Source: Patescibacteria group bacterium
GTDB taxonomy: Bacteria > Patescibacteriota > Minisyncoccia > Phycocordibacterales > JACOZG01
Assembly (NCBI GenBank): GCA_038064435.1
Contig: JBBTTC010000004.1
Location: 3,615-67,614, forward strand
Direction: 5' to 3'
Length of the DNA: 64,000 bases
Below, one piece after another: positions 19,789 through 39,502 of this stretch (position 1 is its first letter; the number at the start of each line of letters is the position of its first letter). Both the position numbers and the translations under genes were made by a program. The notes under the pieces were generated by a model. The model saw only the letters and a program-made list of their open reading frames with translations, had not been told where the DNA came from and did not search any database.

Positions 19789-19832
19789 AAAATGTGTTAG
19801 GTTGATGATCGTTACAGAGATAATTGAGCAAT

Positions 19833-19919
19833 GGAGAGTTGGCTGAGTGGTCGAAAGCGCCTCACTGCTAACGAGGTAGGGGGTTACTCCCCTCGTGGGT
19901 TCGAATCCCACACTCTCCG
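19833..19919 (+). tRNA. tRNA-Ser (anticodon GCT)
   Basis: GGAGAGT acceptor, long variable arm, anticodon loop CTGCTAA, T-arm GGGTTCGAATCCC. Confidence 0.85.
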
Positions 19920-19925
19920 AACGCA

Positions 19926-19941
19926 GTCCGCGGCGGCGGAC
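19926..19941. repeat. GC-rich hairpin gtccgcggcggcggac (variant of the recurring 16-nt palindrome)
   Basis: Seven nt past the tRNA-Ser 3' end; related copies at 36110, 36491 and 39377. Confidence 0.7.
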
Positions 19942-20111
19942 AAGTGAGGAGAGTGAGCGAGCCAACTGCTTGGCTCGCGTTGGGATTCGAACGGCGGAGT
20001 GCTCGATTTTTATCAAAAAATCGGCACGAGCCGGTGCCCAGACCGATCCGCCTTGGGCGGAGAGAGTCGCGGGCGAATCCTACGCATTTCGCGTCAATTA
20101 AAATACACGCC

Positions 20112-30118: not shown

Positions 30119-31096
30119 ATGAACAAAGATGAATTATTGCGTGAATTGGCGTTAAAAATTAGCACGGGCGAGATAAATCGCGAGGAGGTTACCCGCAGTC
30201 TCGGCGGGTCCGCCGCGGCGGATCTAGGCGAGCCAGCAACTCCGGCTCCACACATCGGCTTAACCAAGTGGTTTTATTGGTTGGGCGGCATTATCGCCAT
30301 CGTGGGTATTATTCTTTTTGTTGGTCAGTTTTGGGACGATTTAGGTTCAGCGGCGCGCATCATCGTCACTCTCGGTTTTGGTTTAATCTTGGCTGCCACT
30401 GGCTCGATGCTACTAAAACAAAAACCAAACCAAATGATCGGCTCAATCTTCCACACCTTGGGCGGTTTACTGATTCCGGGTGGAACCATGGTGCTGTTGT
30501 ACGAGCTAGATGTAGACTTATCAACTCTCTGGCCAATTACCATTAGTTTTGGCTTGATATTCGTTTTTTACTTGGCATTAGCGGCCGCGCATAAACGTCC
30601 GATTCTAACTTTCTTTGCCGTCGCCAACGGCACAACTTTCGTCTATCTGCTGATAGAATCACTGATCGAGGGCCGCGCCTACGAGCACGAAAATCTTTAT
30701 GCCTATCTCACCATGATCGTGGGTATAACCTACCTCCTGCTGGCCCAACAATTCAGCCGCGGTTGGAATAAGCAACTGGCCGGGCTATTTAATTTCTTCG
30801 GCAGTGCTGGTTTTTTGGCCGCGGCCGGCTCGCGCATCCCTGACTCGGTACCGTGGCAACTAATTTATGTTCTGTTCGTCTTGGCCATGTTGTTTTGGTC
30901 CATTCGAGCTAAGAGTCGAGGAATTTTGGCTGTTAGCACCATCGCCCTACTGGCGTACATTGGTTTTATTACCCAAGAATACTTCGTTGATTCCATCGGG
31001 TGGCCAATCGCTTTGATAATCCTTGGTTTTGTCTTTATTGGTCTTGGCTACGCTTCAATCAATATCAGCAAAAAATACATTCAGGCCGCCAATTGA
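30119..31096 (+). CDS. polytopic membrane protein (DUF2157-like)
   Basis: 325 aa, soluble N-terminal segment then about 8 TM helices. Confidence 0.45.
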   Translation: MNKDELLRELALKISTGEINREEVTRSLGGSAAADLGEPATPAPHIGLTKWFYWLGGIIAIVGIILFVGQFWDDLGSAARIIVTLGFGLILAATGSMLLKQKPNQMIGSIFHTLGGLLIPGGTMVLLYELDVDLSTLWPITISFGLIFVFYLALAAAHKRPILTFFAVANGTTFVYLLIESLIEGRAYEHENLYAYLTMIVGITYLLLAQQFSRGWNKQLAGLFNFFGSAGFLAAAGSRIPDSVPWQLIYVLFVLAMLFWSIRAKSRGILAVSTIALLAYIGFITQEYFVDSIGWPIALIILGFVFIGLGYASINISKKYIQAAN

Positions 31097-34908: not shown

Positions 34909-36036
34909 CTACTCAATCACAAAACTGGCGTCACTCAAATCACTAAAACCGGGAGTGTTGTAGTAGCAGTAAGCGTGGCACGCGATGTACATCTTGTAAT
35001 TTCCGGGTGTCAACGTGGTGGGAATCGTCCAACTATAATCGCCATCGTTATTTAACATAGTAAAAAGATTAACAACAGCCGCTGGATCATTGCTTGGTAA
35101 ATCCTGATTGAATAAATCGAGGCGGATAAAACTATTGAGATCTGCTCCCGTCCAACGAACCACCTGCGCGGTGCCACGCGGCCAAACCTCACCGCCGTTG
35201 GGCGCAACCACAGTGACGGGTAAACTGGGAATTTGCATGATGAAGGGCTGACCATTAACCCCACAACGTTGGCCATCGGCAGTGTTGCTGTAATAATCAT
35301 CAAGACAAATCCAAATGTTGTAACGCCCTGATCTAGTAACTCGCGTGCCGTCGGCCGCTAAGCCCACCGACCAATCAAAACGTCCATCGTTAGAAGTGGT
35401 AGCGATGTGATGCAGATCGTCCTCGCCTTCGGCCTGAAAAGCTATGGCCACATTGGCACTGGCACTATTGGCATTCCAAAAAATGGCCTGACTAGAATCC
35501 ACAAACCAAAGCTCGCCACCATTGGGAGTGGTCAACGCGATCGTATCGGGAATGGTCATGGTGGTTACCCAAAAATAATTATTGCTGGCATCACAAACCG
35601 TTCCGGCGCAAACCTGCAAATGATAAGCGCCATCGGTAATGTAACTACCGCTGGACAATCTTCCCGCCAACCAAGAATAAGATCCGGAATTAATGACGTT
35701 GCTGGCTATCGTGCGACTGGGACCGTTTTCCACCAATAGCTTGATGGTTACTGCCGTGGCATCAAATCCGTAATTATTCCAACTCACCACATGGCTAGTG
35801 CCACGTAACCAAACCTCTCCCCCGTTCGGAGCAGTTACTCGTGGTAATGACACAGGGGCATAGTCAATCAATTTAGTTTGCCCAATGGCCAGAGATGACT
35901 GGTCTGGACTATGAACCTGCCATAAACGCAATTGCTGGATTAATTGCCCGAACAAATCACTTTCGGCTCGAGCAAAAACTGGAACAAACAAGGTAAATAA
36001 GAGCAACGTCCCGCACAAAATTTTTATTTTTGTCAT
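34909..36036 (-). CDS. exported protein with three PNGGEVW-type repeat domains
   Basis: Signal peptide; three repeats of about 100 aa each with PNGGE[VL]W...V.W; same module in ORF 54795..56267. Confidence 0.5.
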   Translation of the reverse strand: MTKIKILCGTLLLFTLFVPVFARAESDLFGQLIQQLRLWQVHSPDQSSLAIGQTKLIDYAPVSLPRVTAPNGGEVWLRGTSHVVSWNNYGFDATAVTIKLLVENGPSRTIASNVINSGSYSWLAGRLSSGSYITDGAYHLQVCAGTVCDASNNYFWVTTMTIPDTIALTTPNGGELWFVDSSQAIFWNANSASANVAIAFQAEGEDDLHHIATTSNDGRFDWSVGLAADGTRVTRSGRYNIWICLDDYYSNTADGQRCGVNGQPFIMQIPSLPVTVVAPNGGEVWPRGTAQVVRWTGADLNSFIRLDLFNQDLPSNDPAAVVNLFTMLNNDGDYSWTIPTTLTPGNYKMYIACHAYCYYNTPGFSDLSDASFVIE

Positions 36037-36109
36037 GCTAAAATATTATTTTGCCTTTCATCATATCATAATCTATAGTGAAGAGCGAGGCGCGTCAGCA
36101 CGTGTAGCT

Positions 36110-36124
36110 CAGCGGTAGAGTCCG
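36110..36124. repeat. GC palindrome tccgccgcggcgga inside a partial tRNA copy
   Basis: Follows a 25-nt exact copy of the tRNA-Ile 5' end (36088..36112) and precedes ATACACGCC (the anticodon-stem 3' strand). Confidence 0.7.
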
Positions 36125-36156
36125 CCGCGGCGGATACACGCCATTTGCGTTAAAAT

Positions 36157-36399
36157 ATGTTTACGGTATATATTTTACAAAATCAAGTCGGAAAATTGTA
36201 TACTGGCCAAACAAAAAACTTTGAAACAAGGCTAATCGAACATAATGTGACTGGTCATGGCTATACTGCTAAACATCGCCCATGGAAGGTGGTGCTGATG
36301 GAAAAATACCAGAATCGCACCGAAGCGATGAAACGAGAAAAATATCTGAAAACTGGGGCGGGGCGCGACTGGATAAAAAGACAATTATTGCACGTGTAG
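36157..36399 (+). CDS. small GIY-YIG nuclease family protein (UPF0213/YhbQ-like)
   Basis: VYILQNQVGKLYTGQTKNFETRLIEHN fits the GIY-YIG core; stop codon lies inside the tRNA 5' end. Confidence 0.7.
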   Translation: MFTVYILQNQVGKLYTGQTKNFETRLIEHNVTGHGYTAKHRPWKVVLMEKYQNRTEAMKREKYLKTGAGRDWIKRQLLHV

Positions 36400-36461
36400 C
36401 TCAGCGGTAGAGTAGGCGTCTTATACACGCCCGGTCCCTGGTTCGAATCCAGGCACGTGCA
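36390..36461 (+). tRNA. tRNA-Ile (anticodon TAT, predicted to read AUA)
   Basis: Cloverleaf: acceptor GCACGTG/CACGTGC, anticodon stem GGCGT/ACGCC, loop CTTATAC, T-arm CCTGG-TTCGAAT-CCAGG. Confidence 0.7.
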
Positions 36462-36490
36462 TCCTACAAAAAGACCAGTTCGATGGTAGA

Positions 36491-36505
36491 GTCCGCCGCG
36501 GCGGG
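36491..36505. repeat. GC palindrome gtccgccgcggcggg, flanked by a D-arm-like segment and an acceptor-like segment
   Basis: GGTAGAGT-CCGCCGCGGCGG-GCACGTGCA lies 30 nt past the tRNA-Ile 3' end. Confidence 0.7.
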
Positions 36506-36513
36506 CACGTGCA

Positions 36514-38403
36514 CTAGAGAAGAGGTTTTTCGATCACTTCTTTGCGTTTGGGTTTAATGCCATGAGAGACGAGCAGGGCATTGAAGTCTTCGTGATCGAT
36601 TGTTTCCACCTTAATTAATTCCTCCGACAGCGCATCGAGAATCAAACGGTGATTGGTGAGCACCTTCTTGGCCTCGGCCAAAGCCTCGGCCATAATGCGC
36701 GACACTTCTTGATCCACGAGTGCCAACACTGCTTCGGACGAATACTTTTCAGTGATGCCGCCTAAACCGGAGAAGGATTTTTGGCTACCGGCCTCGGTGG
36801 CAATAGGACCAATCTTGTCGCTCATGCCATATTTCGTCACCATATTGCGCGCCACATAGGTGGCCACGGCAATATCGTTGGCCGCGCCAGTAGTAATGTC
36901 GCCAAAAATTATTTGTTCGGCGGCATAGCCGCCGAGCGATACGGCGATCTCATCCAAAAATTCTTTTTTTGATTCCAATTTTTTATCCTCAAACGGCAAC
37001 TTGAGCGTGTAACCGGCGGCATGACCGCGAGAAATAATTGACACCTTGTGCACCGGATCAGAAAAGGGCAAAATCGAAGCGATCAAGGCGTGACCCATTT
37101 CGTGATAAGCCGTGATGCGTTTTTCGCGCTCAGATAAAATATGACTTTTGCGTTCCGGCCCAAGCAAAACTTTTTCGACTGACCGGACTAGGTCATATTG
37201 CGTGATTTGTTTACGATTTTCGCGTGCGGCCAAAATGGCCGCCTCGTTCATTAAATTGGCCAAGTCAGCACCCGAGAAACCGGGAGTGCGCTCAGCGATC
37301 ACCGTTAAATTAACGTCTTCACCCATCGGCTTTTTGTGACCATAAATTTTTAAAATCGCCGCGCGATCTTTAATGTCTGGTTTATCCAGCAATACTCGCC
37401 GATCAAAACGGCCGGGCCGAAGCAGAGCCGAATCGAGCACATCGGGCCGGTTGGTGGCCGCCATAACGATCAACTTCTCATTGGGCTCAAAACCATCCAT
37501 CTCGACCAAAATTTGATTGAGCGTCTGCTCGCGTTCATCGTTACCACCGCCCAAACCCGAACCACGATGCCGGCCGATAGCATCAATTTCGTCAATAAAG
37601 ATGATGGCCGGCGCGGCGCGCTTGGCCAAGCGAAACAGGTCGCGCACTCGGCTAGCGCCGACGCCCACGAACATCTCCACGAACTCGGAGCCAGAAAGAT
37701 AAAAAAACGGTACGCCAGCTTCGCCAGCCACAGCTCGGGCCAACAGAGTTTTGCCGGTGCCGGGCGCACCGGTGAGCAACACGCCCTTAGGAATCTTAGC
37801 GCCGATGTCGAGAAACTTTTTGGGATTTTTAAGAAAATCAACAATTTCCAATAACTCCTCCTTGGCCTCGCGCACACCAGCCACGTCTTTGAAAGTGATC
37901 TTTTGTTTTTTGTCTTTAGGGTCAATCACCCGCGCCTTGGACTGGCCGAAGGAAAAAGCCTGGACACTGGCTCCACGCAACTGGCGCGAGATCAGCCAGA
38001 AAATTAAAAACAAAAACAGCACCGGCAAAATAAATGGCAGGAGATTGAGCAACCAAAAGCTCAAACCGGTTGGATTGCTGATCTCAATGGTCACCTGCCC
38101 CAGCGCCTCGGCCGACACGCCGTAATTGGCGAGGGTATCGGAGAGCGATGTTTCCACCTCCTTTTGCGATCGCTTACTAGTACCATCTTTAAATCCCACG
38201 GTTAGCGCATCACCTCGTACTTCGATTTTTTCCACCTGACCCACTCGCACCGCCGTGGCTAGTTCGGAAATGGTAATGTTGTCAGTCGTCGTTCGATTCT
38301 CGATAATTAACGAGTAAACACCAACTAAAACCATCAAAATTAAGATGGTTGAAACAACCTGCCGTCCGAACTGGTTCATGATTTTACCCCTAGGTTTTTC
38401 CAT
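36514..38403 (-). CDS. ftsH: ATP-dependent zinc metalloprotease FtsH
   Basis: Two TM helices, AAA Walker A GPPGTGKT, second region of homology, HEMGH zinc motif. Confidence 0.95.
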
Positions 38404-38482
38404 TGCCTAAATGCTCTTGTGCCTGATTATACAAAAAAAGTCTGACATGGAAAGAAAAACGAGCTAGAATGCTAACTGTATC

Positions 38483-38935
38483 ATGGTTTATGTGAAGAAT
38501 GACAAAGCTTATTTTGATTACGACCTGCTCGAAAAATTCGAGGCCGGCCTGCAATTGTTGGGCCTGGAGGTAAAGAGTCTCAAGCTTGGTCGAGCCCAAC
38601 TGCCGGGGTCACACGTGATTATCCGTGGCGGCGAAGCCTTTTGGGTGGGCGGCATGATTCATCCCTACCAACCGGCTAACACACCAGATGATTATGATCC
38701 TAGTCGCACGCGCAAGTTGCTGTTAAGTAAAAAAGAAATCGCGCATCTGCAGGTTAAGAGCCAGGCCGAAGGATTGACAATCATACCACTTTCGGTTTAT
38801 AGTAAGGGTCGGCAGATTAAATTAGAAATTGCCCTAGCGCGCGGGCGCAAAAAGTTTGATAAACGACAGGTGTTGAAAAAGCGCGTCGCCGAACGCGACA
38901 TAGATCGGGCGCTTAAGGGTCGCCGAGATTTTTGA
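38483..38935 (+). CDS. smpB: SsrA-binding protein SmpB
   Basis: 150 aa with SmpB-like N-terminus (KAYFDY...LLGLEVKSLK) and basic C-terminal tail. Confidence 0.85.
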   Translation: MVYVKNDKAYFDYDLLEKFEAGLQLLGLEVKSLKLGRAQLPGSHVIIRGGEAFWVGGMIHPYQPANTPDDYDPSRTRKLLLSKKEIAHLQVKSQAEGLTIIPLSVYSKGRQIKLEIALARGRKKFDKRQVLKKRVAERDIDRALKGRRDF

Positions 38936-38947
38936 CAATTGATTTTT

Positions 38948-39322
38948 GGGGATGATCGGCCTCGACATTTAGTGTTGCTGGTTCGGGCAGGTCGAGTTCT
39001 CTGGATACTCGTTAAACACCGGAAAAGCATAAGTGTAAACTTATCGTCTACGGGTAGTCGGGGTGTGGCTTCGCCATATCCTGTTACCCCCTCTTTCGCC
39101 TTAGGCTAAAGAGCATCAGCGCTGGAGACTTCCGATATCTGGACGCTGGTGTTATATCTTCGGGATAGTTGGCGCGACGCCTCGGCGCGCTGGCGAACCA
39201 TAGAGGCACAGATCGGGCGGGTTTTGACTGTTCGGCCCCGCTCGAACTTAATTAAACAGTCTAAGCTTGTAGATCGCACCACTAACCCTATTTGCACCCG
39301 GGTTCGATTCCCGGCATCTCCA
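38948..39322 (+). ncRNA. ssrA: tmRNA (ssrA)
   Basis: 5' GGGGATGATCGGCCTCGAC and 3' GGGTTCGATTCCCGGCATCTCCA pair into a tRNA-like domain; directly downstream of smpB; CCA not encoded; tag frame not resolved. Confidence 0.7.
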
Positions 39323-39338
39323 CTCATTAAAACATTAG

Positions 39339-39368
39339 CGTCCTTCGGGGCGCTTTTGTTTTTTGAGT
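39339..39368 (+). terminator. intrinsic terminator for tmRNA
   Basis: agcgtcc-ttcg-gggcgct hairpin followed by tttgtttttt. Confidence 0.6.
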
Positions 39369-39376
39369 GGAGATGA

Positions 39377-39392
39377 GTCCGCCGCGGCGGAC
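39377..39392. repeat. perfect 16-nt palindrome gtccgccgcggcggac inside an inverted partial copy of the tmRNA 3' end
   Basis: Minus strand reads T-arm-like CGGCGTTCGATTCCCGG, then the palindrome, then acceptor CATCTCCACTC (39369..39412). Confidence 0.7.
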
Positions 39393-39502
39393 GTCCGGGA
39401 ATCGAACGCCGGAGCGAGCGAAGGTGAGCGAGGCGGGGTCACGACCGCCGCGAGTACGCGGCGAGTTGTGACCGATTCCCCCATTCGAGCTAAAATAACC
39501 CC

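Follow-up and report, generated by a model that had tools for sequence, protein, structure and literature searches.

We describe here a minute genetic element from a window of 64,000 nucleotides (nt), this being the whole stretch of DNA analysed, which belongs to a metagenome-assembled genome of the Patescibacteria from Hainich groundwater. We consider it probable, at roughly 60%, that positions 36098-36513 of this window are one copy of a widespread selfish cassette of 0.3–0.4 kilobases (kb) that lives in tRNA genes. The cassette is composed of a gene for a GIY-YIG nuclease of 80 residues, one or two palindromes embedded in a dead part-copy of the host tRNA, and the working tRNA itself. Its anatomy, its recurrence in other lineages, its insertion polymorphism, its tandem arrays, and the co-variation of the protein clade with the palindrome class are all directly observed, and on them we base a conditional proposal of how the element would spread. 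An earlier note on the same DNA, made from the letters of the sequence, had taken this locus for the footprint of a small tRNA-targeting mobile or homing element rather than a conventional integrase island, and this proposal is now supported by the finding of an empty and a filled locus, by the recurrence of the arrangement at other tRNAs, by arrays, and by copy-number differences, besides the fact that the element contains no integrase. The conserved signature of the element is the palindrome, and not the tRNA fragment.

Anatomy of the cassette

The features of the locus are, in the order of their coordinates in the window:

36051..36079, plus strand: promoter-like site, TTGCCT, 17-nt spacer, and TATAGT, ending about 19 nt before the partial tRNA copy; a consensus match only
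36098..36121, plus strand: partial tRNA copy (psi-5'), GCACGTGTAGCTCAGCGGTAGAGT, 24 nt equal to tRNA-Ile positions 1-24 (acceptor 5' strand and D arm)
36121..36134, no strand: first copy of the palindrome P, T-CCGCCGCGGCGG-A, with its 12-mer core at 36122-36133
36134..36142, plus strand: anticodon-arm remnant ATACACGCC, equal to tRNA positions 35-43 (36423-36431)
36157..36399, plus strand: GIY-YIG nuclease gene, 80 amino acids (aa), stand-alone, of the Slx1/UPF0213/Ssn-like type, with its last 10 nt inside the tRNA
36390..36461, plus strand: intact tRNA-Ile(UAU), called by ARAGORN, and by Rfam RF00005 with 67.9 bits against a gathering score of 29
36462..36484, plus strand: spacer of 23 nt between the tRNA and the downstream piece, from reading of the sequence
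36485..36513, plus strand: downstream dead tRNA piece (psi-B), made of GGTAGAGT (36485-36492), CCGCCGCGGCGG (36493-36504), and GCACGTGCA (36505-36513)

The partial copy psi-5' is identical in 24 of 24 positions to 36390-36413 by repeat search, and both form a direct repeat with a start-to-start spacing of 292 nt. The exact 5' copy upstream of the intact gene that the earlier note had reported is therefore real, but it comprises 24 nt instead of 25, it lies at 36098-36121 and not at 36088-36112, which puts the former upstream coordinates 10 nt off, and the spacing given as 300 nt has to be corrected to 292. Since CCGCCGCGGCGG and then ATACACGCC follow psi-5' directly, the palindrome replaces AGGCGTCTT in the upstream copy, which comprises tRNA A26, the 5' half of the anticodon stem, and three bases of its loop (positions 26-34). 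This substitution by a GC palindrome had been recognised correctly from the start, together with the ATACACGCC that comes after it, the palindrome being in fact a 14-mer. A duplicate of the same position and length is found in 17 cassettes of the Patescibacteria/Bdellovibrionales type, and remnants equivalent to ATACACGCC come after P at loci L010-L014, L093, and L096.

The nuclease open reading frame (ORF) lies between the two tRNA copies and terminates inside the 5' end of the tRNA, as first described, with its TAG stop codon (36397-36399) formed by tRNA positions U8-A9-G10, and the stop codons of the ORFs in L010, L093, and L030/L031 fall on the same tRNA positions. The tRNA-Ile(UAU) gene stands exactly where the note had placed it, and it folds as a cloverleaf (z = -2.8), whereas psi-5' plus the palindrome folds no more stably than shuffled sequences (z = -1.1). 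The acceptor stem of this tRNA, GCACGTGC, is itself palindromic. The anticodon UAU is uncommon for tRNA-Ile in bacteria, where AUA is usually read by a lysidine-modified CAU tRNA; a tRNA-Ile(UAU) gene is also present in several relatives within the Patescibacteria (L013, L090, and L093).

The third piece previously seen downstream of the tRNA, a D-arm fragment followed by the palindrome and an acceptor fragment, was found as psi-B, where the D-arm remnant GGTAGAGT, the second copy of P, and the acceptor 3' strand with its discriminator, GCACGTGCA, are joined, everything from the anticodon arm to the T arm being deleted, and which directly abuts the stop codon of ftsH (36514-36516, minus strand). 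An exact 20-nt repeat, GGTAGAGTCCGCCGCGGCGG, occurs at 36114-36133 and 36485-36504, and a 10-nt repeat, GGCACGTGCA, at 36452-36461 and 36504-36513. Fuller forms of the downstream dead copy are present in L013 and L096. Between the repeats there is no gene but the 80-aa ORF, its neighbours being ftsH and a gene for a 375-aa secreted-type protein; no tyrosine or serine recombinase (integrase) gene was found inside the element and neither was an HUH (Y1) transposase, the GIY-YIG protein being its sole product. The same arrangement is seen on 11–14 independent contigs from several samples, and having been assembled independently so many times, it is not an assembly artefact.

The palindrome

The palindrome P is a 14-mer of the form T-CCGCC-NN-GGCGG-A, with constant arms and two to four variable central bases. 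In the window, the exact 13-mer TCCGCCGCGGCGG has 7 matches at 4 places, compared with 0.01 expected from shuffles, and the 12-mer with at most one mismatch has 10 matches compared with 0.41 expected. These places include both sides of the nuclease gene (36122-36133 and 36493-36504), with further copies at 30210 and 39379. The flanking T and A are kept in 53 of 57 distinct contexts, which makes P a perfect palindrome of 14 nt. Folded as single-stranded DNA (ssDNA), it gives a stem of 5–6 base pairs with a four-base CGCG loop; it is not called in a terminator scan, and no T run comes after it. The 14-mer remains invariant across hosts and tRNA contexts whose protein is only 45–60% identical, and this points to a function that depends on the sequence, and not just to a disrupted tRNA copy. 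The protein clade co-varies with the palindrome class and with the tRNA type, and by analogy with the Ssn nucleases discussed below, the palindrome would be the cognate site of the nuclease.

A second palindrome class, CCTGCCTGCC-GGCAGGCAGG, accompanies separate clades of the GIY-YIG protein and is inserted cleanly, with no base loss, in the D loops of dead tRNAs, between positions 9 and 10, or in T arms. It was seen in L030-L032, L041, L052, L064, L067, L081, L084, L112, and L115. In L030, the left arm of this palindrome has expanded to a long CCTG repeat.

The commonest form of P has CCGCGG at its centre, and this is the sequence recognised by the GIY-YIG restriction enzymes Eco29kI and Cfr42I. 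About a quarter of the copies have other central bases, so that the overlap may be a coincidence, and we mention it as a lead only. These enzymes resemble the present protein in having the GIY-YIG fold (PMC1952068 for Eco29kI), but they are much larger, they cut double-stranded DNA (dsDNA), and they are paired with a methyltransferase.

The nuclease

The assignment of the ORF to the GIY-YIG nucleases, for which a profile search had been suggested, is borne out by Pfam PF01541, which matches residues 2-66 with 57.5 bits against a cut-off of 22.6 (E = 1.7e-15), and the structure model agrees with it. In 29 homologues, Y5, Y15, G17, T19, R25, H29, N30, W43, E61, L64, K65, G69, and R70 are invariant, and among them Y5, Y15, G17, R25, H29, N30, and E61 are residues of the catalytic type. 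The family profile matches the solved UPF0213 proteins BH0048 and EF2693 at E of about 1e-12 and Slx1 at 1e-5 to 1e-7. The AlphaFold2 model has a predicted local distance difference test (pLDDT) score of 95.3 and shows the three strands and helices of the GIY-YIG fold, its best Foldseek matches in the PDB being 1zg2, 6seh, 7cq2, and 1ywl, with UPF0213 and Slx1 on top. The protein consists of a single domain, with residues 2-66 out of 80 covered by the match, and a separate DNA-binding domain is not present. Judging by its sequence and its modelled structure, we regard it as a minimal, stand-alone Slx1-like GIY-YIG domain without a DNA-binding domain.

The family is large, with 26,588 clusters at E <= 1e-3 and 6,262 at E <= 1e-10 among 1.84 billion cluster representatives. 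One distant match (32% identity) came from 2.9 million viral contigs, and there was no PHROG family; the plasmid search gave one weak match, the defence-system profiles gave none, and NCBIfam gave only a sub-threshold match to a group I intron endonuclease. Four database proteins of 160–655 aa (P0232, P0233, P0241, and P0243) have two matches each to the 80-aa profile, and these may be tandem units fused by gene calling or true fusions.

Recurrence across lineages

The survey of homologues, in which one genome per species was scanned, collected 79 loci with 41–61% identity, mainly from Patescibacteria and Bacteroidota, besides single loci from Bdellovibrionales, Omnitrophota, Ignavibacteriaceae, Melioribacteraceae, Desulfuromonas, Pseudomonadales, and another Gammaproteobacterium. 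An intact tRNA lies on the same strand within 450 nt in 61 of the 79 loci, and on the opposite strand in none of them. P, in the form CCGCC-N2-3-GGCGG, is present in 57 of the 79, always inside a dead tRNA-like copy, the second palindrome class occurs in at least 7, and a tRNA or a GC palindrome in 72. Two homologues from other organisms have the same 12-mer as the window beside another tRNA. The adjoining tRNAs are in the first place Met (37) and Phe (17), followed by Val, Asn, Arg, Leu, Gln, Ile, and others.

The position of P within the dead copy is typical of each lineage: it replaces positions 38-47 in tRNA-Met, it lies in the T loop in Asn and in the Val of Bacteroidota, it replaces exactly the D arm in Phe, and for the Patescibacteria type of Val and Ile it is found at positions 26-32. 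In Cyclobacterium, the dead tRNA-Met copies carry two palindromes. The loci follow two layouts that are mirror images of each other. The Patescibacteria/Bdellovibrionales layout runs from tRNA positions 1-25 through the palindrome, the anticodon remnant, and the ORF to the intact tRNA, and in 7 of the 17 cassettes compared, a second palindrome-bearing remnant comes 13–39 nt past the tRNA. The Bacteroidota layout begins with the intact tRNA and its terminator, and continues with the ORF, a short anticodon remnant, the palindrome, the 3' part of the tRNA, and a terminator.

In the protein tree, genes with the same tRNA type, layout, and palindrome class cluster together, and within its Patescibacteria clade, genes beside Val(UAC), Val(GAC), and Ile(UAU) are intermingled, a sign that targets have been switched.

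Signs of mobility

Orthologous tRNA-Ile loci were compared, which is the check that had been proposed with the earlier note. Locus L090 is empty, with SmpB, FtsH, 11 nt, tRNA-Ile(UAU), a conserved flank, and a phosphoribosyltransferase gene, and locus L093, from Ca. Vogelbacteria, has the same genes and the same flank but carries, just before the tRNA, a partial tRNA copy, the palindrome, a remnant, and a GIY-YIG gene of 79 aa. This amounts to an insertion of about 290 nt relative to L090, FtsH being 75–77% identical among these relatives, and so the arrangement is no fixed ancestral duplication. The tmRNA-SmpB-FtsH synteny is conserved in the window (36514-39323), in L090, and in L093. In the window, compared with both, the cassette and tRNA-Ile are inverted relative to ftsH, and the gene of the 375-aa protein, which is Kre9/KNH-like, replaces the phosphoribosyltransferase gene, from which we conclude that the window locus has been rearranged. 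An inversion between the two palindromes was considered as the cause of the flipped orientation and was rejected, given that the predicted junctions do not match the sequence.

Whole units are repeated head to tail in L011, L043, L044, and L047, where arrays of units of about 370 nt hold near-identical ORFs. In L043, the palindrome replaces exactly one arm of the tRNA, and ARAGORN still calls that copy a tRNA. Copy number varies as well: one exact protein from one Bacteroidota species, next to the same flanking era gene, is followed by three ORF-less units of 175 nt in some samples and by two in others. In the Bacteroidota loci of the tRNA-Met type L145-L150, ORF-less 175-nt units, made of a palindrome-bearing 3' part of the tRNA plus a terminator, flank a single nuclease gene, and most of the contigs with the gene are either short or run out within 350 nt of it, as would be expected if assembly breaks at repeats.

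The dead pieces also keep a record of past events. The two dead outer halves of L013 and L096, a 5' and a 3' one, are complementary in their acceptor strands and agree in D and T arms that are unlike those of the inner working tRNA; as these halves match each other and not the inner tRNA, it follows that the resident tRNA was split and that a second copy took over. The spacer and D-arm remnant reads TCGATGGTAGAGT in the window, close to the TCGATGGTGAGT found at the same place in the Saccharibacteria locus L013, and unlike the local D loops, and the remnant after the palindrome of L093 resembles that of L013. Since these remnants are common to distant hosts, such pieces appear to travel with the element.

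A scan of metagenomes for TAGAGT-palindrome-AT found 46 sites, 40 of them with enough sequence, and in 16 of these 40, a GIY-YIG ORF and a tRNA follow at 260–305 nt. The other 24 are mostly ORF-less, palindrome-bearing tRNA copies beside an intact tRNA, besides some chance matches in GC-rich coding sequence.

Palindromes without a nuclease gene in the window

Two further sites of the window contain palindrome-bearing remnants without a nuclease ORF:

39359..39415, no strand: ORF-less relative near the tmRNA gene, whose 3' end is repeated here as an inverted dead copy (arms, 17 and 21 nt)
19921..19992, no strand: ORF-less relative at tRNA-Ser, with the variant palindrome T-CCGCGGCGGCGG-A (19927-19940), directly after tRNA-Ser (19832-19920)

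The inverted dead tmRNA copy begins 37 nt after the tmRNA gene (38948-39323), with no nuclease ORF nearby, and ACGT-CCGCCGCGGCGG-ACT (39376-39394) is inserted cleanly between its acceptor strand and its T stem. Behind tRNA-Ser, the variant palindrome is followed by an inverted dead 3' end of tRNA-Ser, split by a second hairpin, GCGAGCCAA-CTGC-TTGGCTCGC. A third, exact 14-mer, T-CCGCCGCGGCGG-A, lies at 30209-30222, inside an ORF for a 325-aa membrane protein (30119-31096), where it codes for GSAAAD, and it may be an in-frame insertion or a matter of chance.

Proposed mechanism and alternative explanations

We propose that the nuclease gene would be transcribed together with the tRNA from the tRNA promoter, the site at 36051-36079 probably being the original one, which would now drive the leader, the nuclease ORF, and the tRNA jointly. 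By analogy with Ssn and its NTS repeats, for which biochemical evidence exists, the nuclease would bind the short hairpin formed by its own palindrome when the DNA is single-stranded or extruded, and would nick beside this hairpin. Host recombination would then copy the cassette to other alleles or copies by means of the flanking tRNA homology, which measures 24 nt at one end and at the other consists of the remaining tRNA, and a functional tRNA would always be restored because the cassette supplies its own tRNA part. Repeated re-entry into the restored gene would produce the tandem arrays, and decay or loss of the ORF would leave palindrome-bearing tRNA relics. Models of circle integration and of single-stranded excision were also worked through on paper, and none of them yields both palindrome-bearing junctions.

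Several observations weigh against the selfish-cassette interpretation and its mechanism. The empty and filled loci belong to different genera and not to strains of one species, and in the window's own population no insertion polymorphism was found, all 11 contigs with the neighbouring gene carrying the cassette. The promoter scan showed the site at 36051-36079 not to be enriched over shuffled sequence. The SRM repeat pattern published for Ssn, HGTCWYN(0-2)YYVSBRHN(0-5)WNVSBRGN(0-2)RNCYNB, has 0 matches in the window and 0 in the surroundings of the 81 homologous genes scanned (L009-L089). A nuclease that cut only beside the palindrome would leave the first entry into a palindrome-less tRNA gene unexplained, and the homology arms are short, not exceeding 24 nt on one side. 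Finally, the palindrome without an ORF in a coding region and the inverted tRNA and tmRNA remnants are not predicted by a simple homing model.

One alternative is the idea that the palindrome is itself the mobile part, in the style of REP, MITE, or mitochondrial GC clusters, entering at tRNA-like stem-loop junctions, with the GIY-YIG protein acting in trans and the tRNA duplications arising as by-products of break repair. The ORF-less palindromes of the window near tmRNA, near tRNA-Ser, and in the coding region would fit well with it, as would the 24 of 40 metagenome sites without an ORF (chance matches included), the presence of several palindromes in single dead tRNAs (P twice in L104, both classes in L115 and L112), the insertion of the second class without loss of tRNA bases in L032, L030/L031, and L115, and the duplication in L111, which reaches 7 nt upstream of the tRNA and resembles a target duplication. 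We nevertheless hold this idea to be unlikely, given that the distances separating ORF, palindrome, and tRNA remnants are fixed in each clade, with 258–304 nt from palindrome to tRNA, that the arrays repeat whole units with the ORF included, and that the palindrome-adjacent remnants common to distant hosts (the window and L013, L093 and L013) suggest larger travelling pieces.

It would also be conceivable, although we rate it as improbable, that this is a domesticated host system, with an Ssn-type ssDNA nuclease that uses its hairpins to regulate how tRNA loci recombine or take part in transformation, the tRNA debris being incidental. The SsnA/NTS proposal in Neisseria is a precedent for such a role, the palindromes stand on both sides of the gene as in NTS-ssnA-NTS, and the ORF is intact, with conserved catalytic residues, and fixed in the population. 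A host function, however, does not go well with a distribution that is patchy even among close genera, with tandem near-identical gene copies and copy-number polymorphism, or with lineages that change tRNA type and pile up dead tRNA copies, which are the signatures of a parasite; nor did the defence-system profiles give any match.

If the tRNA gene had simply been duplicated in tandem long ago, its spacer holding a small ORF of no relation and the palindrome being a terminator or regulatory hairpin, this would account for the direct tRNA repeats and for a palindrome able to form a hairpin, but it is very improbable in view of a palindrome that lacks a T run and goes uncalled in the terminator scan, of the identical 14-mer in different tRNA types across phyla, of the orthologous empty and filled loci, and of the strand bias of 61 to 0. 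Least of all do we credit an intron, an intervening sequence, or a split tRNA, with the upstream fragment as an exon or half-tRNA joined or processed as RNA, for although GIY-YIG-encoding insertions in rRNA genes are on record (PMC11270868) and the L043 copy with one arm swapped is still called a tRNA, a complete tRNA adjoins the fragment, the fragments lack partners for a functional cloverleaf, and the Rfam scan of 35900-36700 passes only RF00005 (tRNA), all others having E >= 3.9, with no ribozyme or intron.

Beyond the selfish-cassette reading, we offer tentatively, and with more doubt than conviction, a wider one, according to which these loci would represent a distinct class of minimal mobile elements of about 0.3 kb, in which an 80-residue, structure- or hairpin-specific GIY-YIG nuclease is the sole protein and a perfect palindrome of 14–20 nt is the cis site. 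The palindromes, with or without the gene, would insert at stem-loop junctions of tRNA genes, and perhaps of rRNA and tmRNA genes, the tRNA sequence, conserved almost universally, would provide the homology for crossing between phyla, and each insertion would kill one copy while a spare is supplied. The natural biology of the Ssn nucleases, as nucleases of mobile elements, would be revealed in this way.

Relation to known systems

The nearest characterised relatives of the element are probably the Ssn hairpin-specific ssDNA nucleases (cd10448) rather than the classical homing endonucleases. The Ssn nucleases, such as SsnA of Neisseria meningitidis, are single-domain GIY-YIG proteins of about 94 aa that bind a hairpin repeat only as ssDNA and cut a few nt upstream of it; the repeat stands on both sides of their genes, an arrangement that the authors call identical to that of an insertion sequence, and in Neisseria, SsnA and NTS have a proposed role in the control of recombination or transformation (Chenal et al. 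2025, PMC11893778). The present family is similar in its single GIY-YIG domain (80–94 aa) with the catalytic Tyr/Tyr/Glu at the same spacing, in its GC-rich hairpin inverted repeats on both sides of the gene, in protein and repeat pairs that appear to co-evolve, and in its scattered repeats without an ORF. It differs in that the perfect 14-nt palindrome sits in dead tRNA copies beside a working tRNA and that the units form tandem arrays, the word tRNA being absent from the main text of PMC11893778. Cleavage of ssDNA is an assumption here, and the closest solved relatives by sequence are the UPF0213 proteins.

The nearest published item to the cassette as a whole is another one, namely, the GIY-YIG-encoding insertions, other than introns, that rRNA genes of the candidate phyla radiation (CPR) carry at the tops or bases of stem-loops (PMC11270868). 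Both occur in the same host group, and both place a small GIY-YIG ORF in the gene of a structured RNA without being introns (PMC11270868). The rRNA insertions lie inside a functional gene, whereas here the working tRNA is intact and it is the dead copy that is marked.

Among the elements that move by cutting DNA, the free-standing GIY-YIG homing endonucleases include the Seg proteins of phage T4, with SegB in a tRNA gene cluster, and I-TevI. They share with the present genes a location next to or inside the target gene, and they are known for spreading by break repair, for co-conversion of the flanks, and for presence/absence polymorphism; this last feature is also found here at an orthologous site (L090 vs. 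L093), between genera only. In contrast, they have at least 200 residues with a DNA-binding domain, they recognise long asymmetric dsDNA sites, they are borne by phages or introns, and they have neither a conserved palindrome nor a duplicated part of the target gene, whereas the present family is almost absent from viral contigs.

Islands and prophages that target tRNA genes by means of tyrosine integrases measure 10–100 kb and usually duplicate the 3' part of the tRNA. As in the present case, they insert in a tRNA gene, carry the displaced tRNA part, leave the gene functional, and have a direct repeat at the border (24 nt here). The cassette differs from them in having no integrase, in its size of 0.3–0.4 kb, in the duplication of the 5' part of the tRNA in Patescibacteria, and in the marking of the displaced part by a palindrome. 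The REP/BIME-RAYT and IS200/IS605 systems, discussed in PMC11893778, resemble it in having GC-rich hairpins that are read as ssDNA by a small nuclease encoded by the element, and many copies without an ORF, but they use HUH/Y1 transposases with covalent intermediates and have no tRNA specificity, the GIY-YIG enzymes being hydrolytic.

A full-text search of the literature returned no tRNA-linked GIY-YIG cassette, nor the palindrome outside cloning primers, most subscription journals being outside its coverage, so that a prior description is possible.

Meaning of the cassette

If this reading is true, the cassette would be among the smallest autonomous selfish DNA units of bacteria, residing beside the tRNA genes of Bacteroidota, Patescibacteria, and other phyla, where the only annotation given to such genes is "GIY-YIG nuclease family protein". 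The hairpin-specific nucleases of the Ssn type would thereby acquire a biological role, that of driving a mobile element, and the cassette would account for the tandem arrays of dead tRNAs and probably also for the contig breaks at tRNA-Met loci in the assemblies sampled. The matched pairs of very small nucleases and short DNA hairpins would, in addition, be candidate tools. For the organism itself, the cassette puts the nuclease gene ahead of tRNA-Ile(UAU), which may be the sole decoder of AUA in this streamlined genome, and in that case, it would be hard to lose.

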